From: Escherichia coli
Lineage (GTDB): Bacteria; Pseudomonadota; Gammaproteobacteria; Enterobacterales; Enterobacteriaceae
Assembly (NCBI RefSeq): GCF_044647545.1
Contig: NZ_CP172818.1
DNA: 64,000 bases
Direction: 5' to 3' (one strand)
The translations under genes were made by a program, and so were the position numbers. The notes beneath the pieces are model-generated. The model had not been told where the DNA came from, searched no databases, and saw only the letters and a program-made list of their open reading frames with translations. Shown here piece by piece: positions 25,493-31,910 of the stretch. Numbering within the stretch: position 1 is the first letter of the stretch; every line of letters starts with the position of its first letter.

Positions 25493-26316
25493 CTACAACT
25501 CATTCAGTATGTACTGGAACCGGCAAGTAGAATCGATTGGCTGCATACTGCTGGTATCAACACGCACGACCATATCGTGTAACTGTTTGTCCGTTATAGG
25601 GTGTCGATTTGGCGTGACCGAGACTTCCGCCTTGTCACATCCCGACGCGGTAAAAGTTATCATCTGTGCAACCCAGCGGCAGTAACCACCTGTTTCATTC
25701 ATCTGCGTACTGTCGCACAACTTCCCATCTTTCATCAAATACGTTGAAAGCGTTTTCTCAACCACACCGCCCGTCGACTGCAGGGTGAGCAGTTTTGACT
25801 TACTGACATAATTCTCATTCCATGAAACGTCATAAGGTTGAACAGCAGAAACGGATGGACAAATCGTGTCGTGACTATCAGGCCCCTGATACGTCACGCC
25901 CCTGGAGAGGCTTCAGAGTCATTCATAATAACCAACCATGGACAAGAAAAGTAAGATTCAATCTCTGCAGAGACAATAACCTCAAATCATAATACCCGCA
26001 GTTCCACCCAGACGGTAATCCAGGACAACTTGCTTTGTTGATATTTTGATGGTAGCCAATCAGCTTAACCGAAGGGCAGGAGGAGGACCACTCCAGCCCA
26101 CATTTTGCAATATTTCCCCAGTCATGAGCCATTGACTACTTTTATATTCACCAACGTACACTGCGGATGGCATCATTATTTTTAAATTAAAAGTCGCAAT
26201 ATTACGCGAATCACCGTTGTAACCGTAGAGCAAACGTCAACGCTATGCCCGGCAGCCATAGCTTCGGCAGCAGCAATAGACATGACCAGAGCGAACAACC
26301 ATCGTAGTATTTTCAT
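25493..26316 (-). pseudogene. yfcO: YfcO-like (DUF2544) fimbrial-operon gene, fragmented
   Basis: Locus length (824 bp) fits a ~273-aa gene but the reading frame changes at least twice: a 41-codon N-terminal piece from ATG 26316, a 69-aa ORF 25923..26132 and a 134-aa ORF 25493..25897. Confidence 0.5.
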
Positions 26317-26317
26317 T

Positions 26318-26854
26318 TTAAATATACTCAAATGTCGCAGTTAAAGAGGCGGTAAATTCACCGATCGTCACATCACGGCCGCTTTTCGCCTGTAGCCAGG
26401 CTCTGAAATTGATATCGTTATTGCCATTGGTTAGCGCAAAGGTCGCCCCATTTGTATTGTTGATGGCAACGGCATTCCGTCGGTTTTTTCCATGCCAATT
26501 CCCACTCCCTGAGCGGTTGATGACGTATCCAGTGCCAGAAAACCGGGTTGTTCGCTGTCTTTATCCCGCGAGCGTGACTTTTACGTTGTATCCCGCCGGC
26601 CCTTTGCAATCTTTCAGCTTAAAGACTACGGGTACACGAGCGGACTGGCCTGCAACGTTCAAATCCTGACGACTGACCGTGGGAAAGCGCACCTCTGCCA
26701 GATATTGGCCATCCACCACCAGCGCACAGGATTTACTTAATAAATTACCGGAGAAATGCAGATTATTATCTGCCGCGAATAACGTGCTACTCATTGCCAA
26801 TATCAGCCCCGCTAACAGGACGTAACCACCGGACTGAATCATTGATTTATTCAT
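26318..26854 (-). pseudogene. yfcP: Fimbrial subunit YfcP-like, interrupted by an in-frame TAA
   Basis: N-terminal 97 codons end at a TAA (26561-26563); the same frame continues without further stops to a typical fimbrial C-terminus (GEFTASLTATFEYI) ending at 26318. Confidence 0.65.
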
Positions 26855-28611: not shown

Positions 28612-31269
28612 TTATTGAGTAGCTGAAATTGACGTCGGCGCTTCCGTTGGTGTGACTTGCCGCGTCTGGTCCTGAATAACAGGCTTAATGTCTGCCGCTG
28701 AAGAATCAGGGGCTGCCGTTCCCTTTTGTTCACACGGCAACAACAGGCCGCTGAACAGATCGGCAGGTAGCGGCTTCGGCAATACGATCTCGCATTGTGC
28801 GCTGCCTTCCCAGAACACCGTCATATGCTCACCCGCATTGACTCCCGCCAGATAGACATTGCCTTCATCATCCACAATGCCAACCTGCTGCTGCTCGTCG
28901 TTTTTCACTTCCGCGCCAAACGGCGGGTAGCTGCCGTCACGCAACCGCAGTACCGCCATCGCTTTTTGCCCGCTGATCACTTTGAATTTGCGATAGCCAA
29001 TTGCACCTTCCGTCAGGGTTGCCTGTACCACCGACTGGGTGGCTTCCGCATCTTCTGGCAGGTTGTTTAAATCGATATACGCCTGATTGCGATAGTAGTT
29101 GTTAATATCGGCGACCACCGCCTTGCCAAACATATTGGTGTACACCGGCGCGCCGTTGCTTTCGACCGGCACATTGGCAATCCCGTCGGCGTCAATCAGC
29201 AAGCGCGTACCGCCCATGCTTTGAGTGCGATGCAGCGCCCCACCATGCGCGGTCAGCGTTGCCCCGCCCTGTAAGGCGATCCCCGCCGAGCGGTATTCCC
29301 CCTCATGGTAGTTGGCGCTGAGATCAACCTTCGCCAGCGAGCCGTCGTGACTCAGATAACCATCCACGCTGCCGTGCTGTTCGCTGGTACCGACGTTAAC
29401 CTGGTAGTGCGTTGCGTCATCAACGCGCTTAAAGTAACCGACCTGGCTGCTGTCCGACCCACTGCCGTAGGAGCCGTTGTAGGTCACGGTGCTGCTGTCG
29501 CTCCACGGAATGCTCATGCTGAGGTACATCCCCTTATCCGCGTTATCGTCATATTCGTAGCGATAGCCGGTCACCGAGATGCTCATGTTGCGAATACTCC
29601 CCATATTAAAATAGTGGGAAAACATCAGGTTATAGTTTGTCTGTTCCGGGCGATTCCAGTAAGTACGATGGGAGTAGTTGAGATAGATCGAGACACCCGC
29701 AGCGGCAAAGTTCTGGTTATAGGTGATCGTATACATCTCTTTGTCGTTACCGGTCCGCGCCATGTCCGACTGGTTCGCGTCCAGATACTCGCTCATGGTC
29801 ATGAAGTTCTTTTCAGAAAAACGGTAGCCTGCAAAGGTGACGCGGCTGTTGAGTTCGTCAAAGTCTTTGGCATAGCTCACGCGAAAGGAGTTGCCGTCCA
29901 GTTTTCCTTTGCCGTATGCGCTGTCATGATCCAGGTTGACGTGCGAGTGAGTCACATCGAACGCCAGCGCGCCAAACTGTGCGAGGTCGCGCCCCCCCCC
30001 CATCGCCGCCGACTGGTAGTGTTCATCTGCCAGCGCGCCACCGTAGAGCGACCAGCCATCTGCCACCCCCCATGACGCTTCTCCGCCGGAGAAAAAGCCG
30101 CCTTCGGTCTTGTGGTTCCAGTCTTCCGGACGCCCCATCATCACTTTGTAACGCACCTGCCCCTGGCGCGTGAGGAATGGCATAGATGCGGTGGTAACGT
30201 CATATTCCTGCACCTGACCATTCTGTTCTTCAACGCGGACGTGCAGTGTGCCGGAGACGGAGTCGCCGATATCCTGAATGCGGAATGGCCCGGCGGGAAC
30301 CTGGGTTTCGTAAAGTACCCGGCCCATCTGGCTAATGGTGACTTTTGCACTGCTGTGCGCCACGCCGGAGACATCCGGCGCATAGCCGCGCAGGTTGGGC
30401 GGCAGCATCTGGTCATCGGTGCTGACGCTGCTGCCAATATAGTTAAAGCCGTCGAAAATATCGGAGTTGAGATAATCTTCACCCAGCGACAGCTTGGCTT
30501 TTAAAGAGGGTAAGGCCCGCCAGGCGTAATAACGGCTCCAGTCCCAGTTTTTGCTCGTTGTGCTGTTACTGCTGTCATCGTCTTCGTCGTCGTTGCTGCG
30601 GGTGTGCTGATAATCACTTTGCCAGTCAGCGCGGAAACGCCATGCCCCCAGGTTCGCCCCAACGGTACCGTTGCCGCTGATATCATGTGAGTCCTCGCCC
30701 CCCTGCTCCTGATGACGGGTTTGCGCATTGAGGCTGTAGTCGGCAATCAGGCCAGGAATACCGTCGTCCCAGCGTGAGGGTGGGTCCCAGTCGCTGCTGG
30801 TATATTCGAGATAAGCCTGTGGCACTGTCAGCAGCAACGCCGACTGGCTTAAATCATTCTCGACTTCCATCCCATCTAATTGCCCCGGTTTAAGGCATTC
30901 ATCGTTGTGCGTCCACTGCAGGCTTTTTGCTATCCCTTCTTTCAGCCCCAGCGCCGCCACTAACTCAGGTGTCAGGCAGGCATACGTTTTTGTTGGATCG
31001 TTTTCAGAAACATACCAGTTAATGTCGTATTCATCAGAAAGGGGTTGTTTATTTATAAATACACGTAAATTATATTTTCCCGCGTCGACATACCCTTTTT
31101 TTGAAAACTTACCGAGATCAATTTTCGTGTCGCCCTTTAACTCAAGGAAACGGGGGTCAAATTGAATGGAATCATCAGCCCATGCATTGACTGATCCACC
31201 TGAGATTGCCAGCGCAATATAGCAGGCGATTCCCCGCAGCCGAAAATTTGAGTGATTAGGCATACACAT
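28612..31269 (-). CDS. yfcU: Outer-membrane fimbrial usher, full length
   Basis: Uninterrupted 885-aa ORF with signal peptide and usher-type beta-barrel architecture. Confidence 0.85.
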   Translation of the reverse strand: MCMPNHSNFRLRGIACYIALAISGGSVNAWADDSIQFDPRFLELKGDTKIDLGKFSKKGYVDAGKYNLRVFINKQPLSDEYDINWYVSENDPTKTYACLTPELVAALGLKEGIAKSLQWTHNDECLKPGQLDGMEVENDLSQSALLLTVPQAYLEYTSSDWDPPSRWDDGIPGLIADYSLNAQTRHQEQGGEDSHDISGNGTVGANLGAWRFRADWQSDYQHTRSNDDEDDDSSNSTTSKNWDWSRYYAWRALPSLKAKLSLGEDYLNSDIFDGFNYIGSSVSTDDQMLPPNLRGYAPDVSGVAHSSAKVTISQMGRVLYETQVPAGPFRIQDIGDSVSGTLHVRVEEQNGQVQEYDVTTASMPFLTRQGQVRYKVMMGRPEDWNHKTEGGFFSGGEASWGVADGWSLYGGALADEHYQSAAMGGGRDLAQFGALAFDVTHSHVNLDHDSAYGKGKLDGNSFRVSYAKDFDELNSRVTFAGYRFSEKNFMTMSEYLDANQSDMARTGNDKEMYTITYNQNFAAAGVSIYLNYSHRTYWNRPEQTNYNLMFSHYFNMGSIRNMSISVTGYRYEYDDNADKGMYLSMSIPWSDSSTVTYNGSYGSGSDSSQVGYFKRVDDATHYQVNVGTSEQHGSVDGYLSHDGSLAKVDLSANYHEGEYRSAGIALQGGATLTAHGGALHRTQSMGGTRLLIDADGIANVPVESNGAPVYTNMFGKAVVADINNYYRNQAYIDLNNLPEDAEATQSVVQATLTEGAIGYRKFKVISGQKAMAVLRLRDGSYPPFGAEVKNDEQQQVGIVDDEGNVYLAGVNAGEHMTVFWEGSAQCEIVLPKPLPADLFSGLLLPCEQKGTAAPDSSAADIKPVIQDQTRQVTPTEAPTSISATQ

Positions 31270-31343
31270 ATCCGTTTGTGAAACAGTCGTAAATCTGTTG
31301 CGTGTTGAAAAACCCCACAGCAGAACGCTGTGGGGTTGTCACA

Positions 31344-31910
31344 TCAGAGATAGGTAATCTGGAATGTGGTCAGGGTTTCGAACTGGCCGAGATCCGGCGC
31401 TTCGGTTTCACCCACCAGCCAGGCTTTAAAGTTCAGCGTTTGCTTGTCTTTACCTTTGCTGGTTGAAGCATCCATCACGATTGGCTGAACAATCTTTTCG
31501 CCCACTTTATAACCTTTGCCATGGGTATCGCCGATCACCAGGCTCACATTCTTCATGGCAACACCGCTGTCAACGTTGAATAACGCATAGTTATCTGTGT
31601 TGGCTGGCCCCGCGTAGTTAGTACCGGTGAACGTGGTCTCCATGTTTGTTTCAGTGGAAAACACGCAGTCCTGTAAACGGATCTGGAAATCTTTCGGTGT
31701 GGTGGTGCCACCGCCGGTCAGTTTAGCCGCACCGATGTCACCCATATCGACTTCCAGTTTGTGATCGTCTGGAACGATAGAGCACGGGGAGTCTTCAATG
31801 GTGCCGTAGAAGCGCGCGGTACCGTTGTTGCCTGCTGCAAATGCAGAACTGGAAACAACTGCGCCCATGACCATCGCCGCAGCAATGGCTGTTTTGGCAA
31901 ACTTACTCAT
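31344..31910 (-). CDS. yfcV: Major fimbrial subunit YfcV-like
   Basis: 188-aa ORF with signal peptide and C-terminal beta-strand motif (TTFQITYL); first gene of the operon. Confidence 0.8.
   Translation of the reverse strand: MSKFAKTAIAAAMVMGAVVSSSAFAAGNNGTARFYGTIEDSPCSIVPDDHKLEVDMGDIGAAKLTGGGTTTPKDFQIRLQDCVFSTETNMETTFTGTNYAGPANTDNYALFNVDSGVAMKNVSLVIGDTHGKGYKVGEKIVQPIVMDASTSKGKDKQTLNFKAWLVGETEAPDLGQFETLTTFQITYL

Follow-up and report, generated by a model that had tools for sequence, protein, structure and literature searches.

The yfc locus of the DNA analysed here raises the question of whether a fimbrial operon is decaying in one lineage of Escherichia coli or has been misrepresented in an assembly. 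We analysed a 64,000-nt stretch of contig NZ_CP172818.1 (assembly GCF_044647545.1; hereafter, the window), in which the minus strand of the interval 25493–31910 encodes the yfc chaperone-usher fimbrial operon, flanked by sixA (32478–32963) and smrB (24870–25421). An earlier note on this DNA had described an intact usher gene alongside broken pilin and accessory genes, a decay pattern unlike that of K-12, and had proposed either independent inactivation of the operon in different lineages or sequence errors. The difference from K-12 holds, in that the K-12 usher gene, yfcU, is annotated with an internal stop. However, that difference is not good evidence for lineage-specific decay, and of the two proposals the evidence favours errors. 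We conclude that the "decay pattern" is best not treated as a real feature, and that it is most likely not biological. Both the lesions and the hybrid tract that carries them are probably artefacts of assembly or consensus calling, in which two E. coli haplotypes have been joined in a chimeric consensus.

A K-12-type tract within an ST648-type operon

The window is ST648-type (phylogroup-F-like) E. coli, with ~10 differences in 58 kb relative to NZ_CP008697.1; positions 1–25421 differ from that sequence by four mismatches and two gaps, and positions 46342–64000 (17.7 kb) by a single mismatch. The flanks of the operon, yfcV, the usher and chaperone genes and the 5' end of yfcR are likewise 99.9–100% identical to the yfc locus of ST648/phylogroup F, with three substitutions in coding DNA between yfcV and the 5' end of yfcR. 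By contrast, positions 25422–27676 are of K-12 type (98.8–99.0% identical to K-12 overall, with indels counted). This tract takes the place of the ST648-type 3' end of yfcR, yfcQ, yfcP, yfcO and ptuB-ptuA (Septu), all of which the window lacks; across the corresponding 4.3 kb, ST648 and its relatives carry a yfcQ, yfcP and yfcO set with only 68% identity, together with the Septu pair. In ST648, the Septu genes lie between smrB and yfcO (1488–3489 of L001) and are recognised by PADLOC (PtuA, E = 1.6e-168; PtuB, E = 1.1e-94), whereas there is no Septu pair between 25421 and 25493 of the window, as in K-12. Alignment to K-12 and other E. coli yfc operons, which the earlier note had suggested as a check, bears out the broken frames but shows the operon to be a mosaic of ST648-type and K-12-type alleles, with every lesion located in the K-12-type part and private to this sequence.

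The right-hand junction falls inside yfcR (27335–27823), between positions 27676 and 27677, in the sequence GAGTTCGG[T]AAT|ATG. This minor pilin gene had been taken to be intact, and it is indeed an open 162-aa ORF; it is, however, a hybrid of two alleles, the first ~49 codons being ST648-type and the remainder identical to K-12, joined in frame. The left-hand junction falls inside the 9-nt TCAGGGCAA at the smrB stop codon. Both junctions are within 12 nt of the limit of alignability between the two alleles. No K-12 single-nucleotide polymorphisms (SNPs) have been carried into the flanks of the tract, although K-12 differs there by 3–10%. A crossover inside flanking homology would be expected to transfer donor SNPs with the tract; the junctions instead lie in 3–12 nt of shared sequence, between flanks that are 100% ST648-type. 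The hybrid has the junction sequence GCGGAGGTGGAGTTCGGTAATATGATTGCTGATAAC. The hybrid junction was present in 0 of 5,426 complete E. coli genomes and was not found in an exact scan of JGI metagenomes; similarly, the exact hybrid YfcR and the exact usher of the window were not found in a 153-billion-gene index. We rejected capture of foreign DNA by end-joining by argument, since each junction keeps the register of the orthologous allele, and we rejected a Shigella-like or other-species origin of the sequence, since the flanks are 99.96–99.99% identical to ST648.

Lesions are confined to the K-12-type tract and are rich in small indels

All of the gene lesions in the operon lie within the K-12-type tract. 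In the minor pilin gene yfcQ (26851–27338), loss of 1 nt at 26977, in codon 121 of the 162, makes the ORF end early at 26922, and the gene also encodes an E98K substitution. The 1-bp frameshift described previously is therefore present, but the segment it removes is the C-terminal strand of the pilin itself. That segment is no donor strand: the strand that pilins of chaperone-usher systems donate is their N-terminal extension. A TAA had been reported at 26561–26563 in the minor pilin gene yfcP (26318–26854), with the rest of the gene still in frame. The TAA is there (26563–26561 in the direction of transcription), but it is created by two 1-nt deletions (26567 and 26561) that shift the frame and not by a nonsense substitution; a third 1-nt deletion (26471) brings the frame back, such that ~90 nt are read out of frame and the gene is in frame again only downstream of 26471. 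The gene for the tip adhesin, yfcO (StfH/YfcO, DUF2544; 25493–26316), is broken as described, into at least three ORF pieces, by five indel events: +2 at 26230–26231, -1 at 26076, -1 at 25988, -1 at 25902 and +3 (a CTG duplication) at 25846–25848. The yfcO sequence also contains six amino-acid substitutions.

Altogether, the tract differs from K-12 by 12 substitutions and 10 indel events, i.e. 22 differences in 2.25 kb, where the background of the window predicts ~0.4. The first 630 nt from the yfcR junction are identical to K-12, and all differences come after that point. None of the differences is purely synonymous, and there are ten amino-acid changes. The differences include several complex events (AG to C, AC to G, G to AT, A to GCT). 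Seven of the 10 indels are -1 deletions; of these seven, three lie in runs of G or C, and several have a substitution next to them. A cluster of five substitutions at 26266–26280, in the yfcO signal peptide, respects codons (L13S, T16A, T17A), and its state is not that of K-12. The indel fraction in the tract (10/22) compares with 0.01 among differences between the window and K-12 elsewhere, and with 0.10 in a prophage island in the same window (described below). The excess is significant for natural indel fractions of 0.10–0.25 (binomial P = 2e-5 to 0.03).

A second, private concentration of indels lies outside the tract, at 32290–32422, in the AT-rich intergenic (promoter) region between sixA and yfcV. 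This patch contains ~14 small indels and 2–5 substitutions in 135 nt, with a net length change of zero, and its indel excess (~14/16) is stronger than that of the tract (binomial P of 3e-7 or less). Four other alleles of B2/F type, which differ from one another by 2–5%, are all identical to ST648 at 32290–32422. The zero net length change raised the idea of a small invertible promoter element upstream of yfcV, which we rejected because the reverse complement fails to match. Natural pseudogene decay would give a spectrum dominated by substitutions, with indels making up ~10–25% of differences, and neither the tract nor the patch has such a spectrum.

Natural decay would also be expected to leave inherited lesions, some of them common to related genomes. 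The K-12-type distal allele is nearly invariant across ~1,100 genomes, and none of the lesions was shared by any of these ~1,100 carriers, for which the best identity in the lesion-dense pieces was 96.7–96.9%. Likewise, the products of the broken genes, a 97-aa truncated YfcP and a 138-aa YfcQ, were not in the 153-billion-gene index. Two ideas on the origin of individual lesions were set aside. Conversion towards the ST648 sequence appeared to account for 6 of the 12 substitutions in an alignment that included the window, but this number fell to 4 of 12 (P = 0.07) in an alignment without it, and such conversion is not established. Template switching or micro-conversion was dropped, the search for novel k-mers not having been constrained to span the lesions.

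Structural states and small variants follow different haplotypes

Within a 21-kb part of the window, K-12 and ST648 differ by three independent large structural features. These are the distal yfc genes (with or without Septu), a 195-nt unit in a yfdF-like gene, and a prophage remnant located at argW, and the window has the K-12-type state at each. By contrast, all of the ~1,350 alignable SNP positions relative to K-12 are in the ST648 state, as are 32 of the 32 K-12/ST648 gaps in the proximal operon (7 nt or shorter) and, elsewhere, all gaps of up to 33 nt.

At the second of these differences, the window has an A7 filler (39525–39531) at the exact point where the ST648 yfdF-like gene has the 195-nt unit, an extra repeat unit that K-12 does not have. 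The filler is private, the window also lacks the unit, and the yfdF-like gene is split into ORFs at 39164–39538 and 39516–40223. At the third, argW (tRNA-Arg; 42459–46356 region) is interrupted after 40 nt by a CPS-53-like, 3.8-kb remnant of the early region of a lambdoid prophage (yfdN to torI-like; 42499–46341), with flanks that are 100% ST648-type up to the junctions. The left junction of this island (42499–42512) consists of ~14 nt of degraded argW with three small deletions, and ARAGORN detected no tRNA at the interrupted gene. Noise or filler is concentrated at structural junctions: the A7 at 39525, the argW junction, the patch at 32290–32422 and the lesions of the tract.

Taken together, the large structural states of one haplotype, the SNPs and small indels of another, and the noise at the seams point to a chimeric consensus. 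A minor or contaminating strain may have supplied a draft backbone or graph branch that was then polished with reads from the major strain. Polishing of this kind would cause the consensus to follow the ST648-type genome wherever differences are alignable (SNPs and indels of up to ~33 nt) and to stay K-12-type in large or unalignable blocks, and it could leave random small indels, complex changes and filler bases in poorly corrected blocks and at their junctions. The real strain would then carry an intact ST648-type operon with Septu, and the broken yfcQ, yfcP and yfcO would exist in no cell. The window resembles chimeric or mis-polished assemblies derived from mixed-strain or contaminated reads in its two-haplotype split, in having junctions at the limits of alignability, and in the filler and indel noise at junctions and inside unpolishable blocks; it differs from them in that the noise is unevenly distributed.

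Several observations weigh against a chimeric consensus, the case for which is itself built from the assembled sequence. High quality throughout the remainder of the window means that some local cause must lie behind the noise, and even within the tract the lesions are unevenly spread, with a clean stretch next to the yfcR junction. There is no significant bias of the substitutions towards ST648, and so no direct sign of a second population of reads. The ORFs of the prophage island are intact, and the island is 95%, not fully, identical to K-12. Polishing a K-12-type backbone to a clean ST648-type sequence across 4.3 kb at 83% identity would also be demanding for software. Because the island is only 95% identical to K-12, the second haplotype would have to be a wild K-12-type strain and not laboratory K-12; contamination with laboratory K-12 is unlikely, given the same level of identity and the non-K-12 state of the cluster in the yfcO signal peptide. 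Sequencing error across the whole window was rejected, since long genes are unbroken and the 58 kb that lie outside the affected blocks have only ~3 indels.

These results affect how the genome should be read. The yfc locus here is not to be counted as a case of lineage-specific pseudogenisation. The absence of Septu is not to be trusted, and would be false if the consensus is chimeric; the broken argW, yfcA and yfdF-like genes of this genome are likewise not to be trusted. More generally, the combination of structural states from one haplotype, SNPs from another and junk at the junctions is a useful flag for chimeric assemblies that can be read without recourse to reads.

Alternative explanations

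The alternative that survives best, although we regard it as unlikely, is that both the recombination and the decay are real: an ST648-clade strain would have imported K-12-type distal yfc genes, losing its own distal genes and Septu, and the frameshifts would have accrued afterwards or existed already in the donor. Such a strain would retain the usher, chaperone and major subunit without a working tip or adaptor and, judging from general chaperone-usher biology, could make at best non-adhesive YfcV fibres. E. coli phylogroups commonly recombine with one another, and disruption of fimbrial clusters is frequent (Wurpel et al. 2013; PMC3559732). The assembly is also clean elsewhere, the codon-respecting cluster at 26266–26280 looks like mutation rather than base-calling noise, and other broken genes in the window (such as yfcA, in which T6 has become T5) could mark the strain as an accumulator of pseudogenes. 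Natural decay is nonetheless disfavoured by the mutation spectrum, in which indels make up 10 of 22 differences and purely synonymous changes are absent, and by the boundary-exact junctions. The indel fractions of the tract and the upstream patch are far above natural spectra; even under constitutive SOS induction, substitutions increase 30-fold and small indels only 13-fold (bioRxiv 10.1101/2020.01.15.908301). A natural origin would require three imports, six boundary-exact junctions and a frameshift-rich burst in a lineage only ~1e-4 diverged from its relatives, which leaves no time for ~24 indels; boundary-exact junctions without donor SNPs are unexpected from RecA-type recombination. Moreover, neither the ~1,100 carriers nor the gene index yielded a lesion-bearing donor lineage, and the A7 filler sits exactly at a structural difference between K-12 and ST648.

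We consider it improbable, and more so than real decay, that the operon is a natural hybrid with a K-12-type distal import, in which local consensus errors produced the frameshifts as well as the upstream patch. The in-frame hybrid yfcR and the 630 nt of K-12 sequence past its junction fit such an import, as does the error-like spectrum of the lesions, and error-rich public assemblies of the same locus do exist (e.g. L011, L012 and L017). If this were the case, the strain would have a complete, functional mosaic yfc operon. However, it would remain unexplained why errors occur only in the imported segment and at the other K-12-type junctions, and why the junctions are boundary-exact; the absence of the hybrid from all 5,426 complete genomes also argues against it.

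It is very improbable that the sequence is correct in full, which would mean that a natural ST648-clade strain has swapped three non-homologous blocks in register for their K-12-type counterparts, with no flanking SNPs, each swap being accompanied by a frameshift-rich burst and filler. Were this so, E. coli would possess an undescribed short-homology, error-prone replacement pathway, and the yfc operon would encode assembly machinery without tip subunits.

Least credible of all is a single event of recombination-coupled mutagenesis, in which a short-homology, in-register template switch to K-12-type DNA was accompanied by synthesis by an error-prone, Pol IV-like polymerase prone to -1 frameshifts: Pol IV favours -1 frameshifts via misalignment, in keeping with the seven -1 events among the 10 indels, the three in G or C runs, the several beside a substitution, and the co-localisation of the lesions with the imported tract, but errors would have to occur about once per 100 nt of the tract and once per 10 nt of the upstream patch, exceeding known rates for polymerases or break repair by orders of magnitude, and neither the patch, which lies outside the imported tract, nor the A7 filler and argW junction 12–17 kb away would be explained.

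The yfc operon and related loci

Setting aside the broken genes, the operon is an ordinary core Yfc/Stf-type chaperone-usher locus, and not a new kind of system. It has a major pilin gene and occupies the fixed sixA-smrB locus, with flanking genes as in K-12 and ST648, both being criteria used in the classification of Wurpel et al. (2013; PMC3559732). The gene for the major fimbrial subunit, yfcV (31344–31910, minus strand), is an ST648-type allele and is open over 188 aa, as had been reported; the exact YfcV protein is very common, contains PF00419 and is StfA-like in NCBIfam.

The usher gene, yfcU (28612–31269, minus strand), is also an intact ST648-type allele and forms the continuous 885-aa ORF described previously (883 aa from position 31263, the start annotated in relatives), with only two substitutions relative to ST648. 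Its product scored 1826.7 bits over residues 1–883 against NCBIfam model NF011812, for which the curated cutoff is 972, and a near-identical orthologue contains PapC_N, Usher and PapC_C domains, as expected for an outer-membrane usher of the PapC/FimD family. We take this usher to belong to the pi clade of published classifications. At position 29996, a T-to-G change (V to G) creates a G10 run, which could be prone to slippage; the same base is found in L007, indicating a natural polymorphism.

The gene for the periplasmic chaperone, yfcS (27840–28592, minus strand), adjoins the usher gene, is identical in DNA sequence to ST648 and is open over 250 aa, consistent with the earlier description of it as intact. 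An identical YfcS orthologue contains PapD_N and PapD_C domains, as a PapD-like chaperone would. YfcS scored 328 bits against the NCBIfam StfD model, under the equivalog cutoff of 447, indicating that it is a StfD homologue and not StfD itself. The three minor pilin genes and the adhesin gene lie downstream on the same strand, with yfcQ, yfcP and yfcO being K-12-type. For the YfcQ and YfcP fragments, matches to NCBIfam Stf models were confined to the N-terminal parts; with yfcQ, yfcP and yfcO all frameshifted in the sequence as given, the operon does not have a full set of intact minor pilins and tip adhesin.

The Salmonella stf operon is homologous to E. coli yfcOPQRSUV, and the subunits encoded here are Stf-like. 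The locus and gene order are those of E. coli Yfc fimbriae (major subunit, usher, chaperone, three minor pilins and the StfH/YfcO adhesin), from which the window differs in that three of its seven genes are broken and in being a mosaic of two alleles that share 68–83% identity. All seven yfc genes are intact in ST648 and its relatives, unlike here. The operon of K-12 MG1655 is cryptic, with an annotated usher pseudogene and intact distal genes. The window shares with it the K-12-type allele from the 3' end of yfcR to yfcO, but differs in having the other, intact usher allele (83% identical) and in the private indels of its distal genes.

The Yfc cluster is core-associated and, in the survey of Wurpel et al. 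(2013), is the sole such cluster reported intact in all of the genomes examined (PMC3559732). If the lesions were real, the window would therefore contain an unusually broken copy of a cluster that this survey reports as intact in every genome. Since yfcV has been listed among the virulence genes of extraintestinal pathogenic E. coli (ExPEC) type in ST648 (PMC9410367), real lesions would also bear on the interpretation of yfcV as an ExPEC marker in that clone.

Other observations in the window and at the locus

Several public assemblies of the same locus (L011, L012 and L017) contain many fragmented genes (fadL, the chaperone and usher genes, aroC and yfcA); such error-rich deposits of the yfc locus could be mistaken for pseudogenisation. 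Full prophages near lexA/dinF in other genomes (L022 and L023) match parts of the argW island at 100% and 99.4% identity. The YfdQ-like protein of the island occurs only in full prophages at another locus, and the exact protein encoded by one island ORF was not in the gene index.

At the 5' end of yfcA (21745–21765), a run of T6, present in both ST648 and K-12, is T5 in the window, causing a frameshift at about codon 20; the gene index lacked the truncated 247-aa YfcA product. At a distance of 20 nt from this deletion there is also a private F-to-L substitution. Lastly, the mnmC-yfcL intergenic region has a 6-nt deletion (CACATT) at position 20153 relative to ST648; K-12 differs at this site too, with a 5-nt gap.

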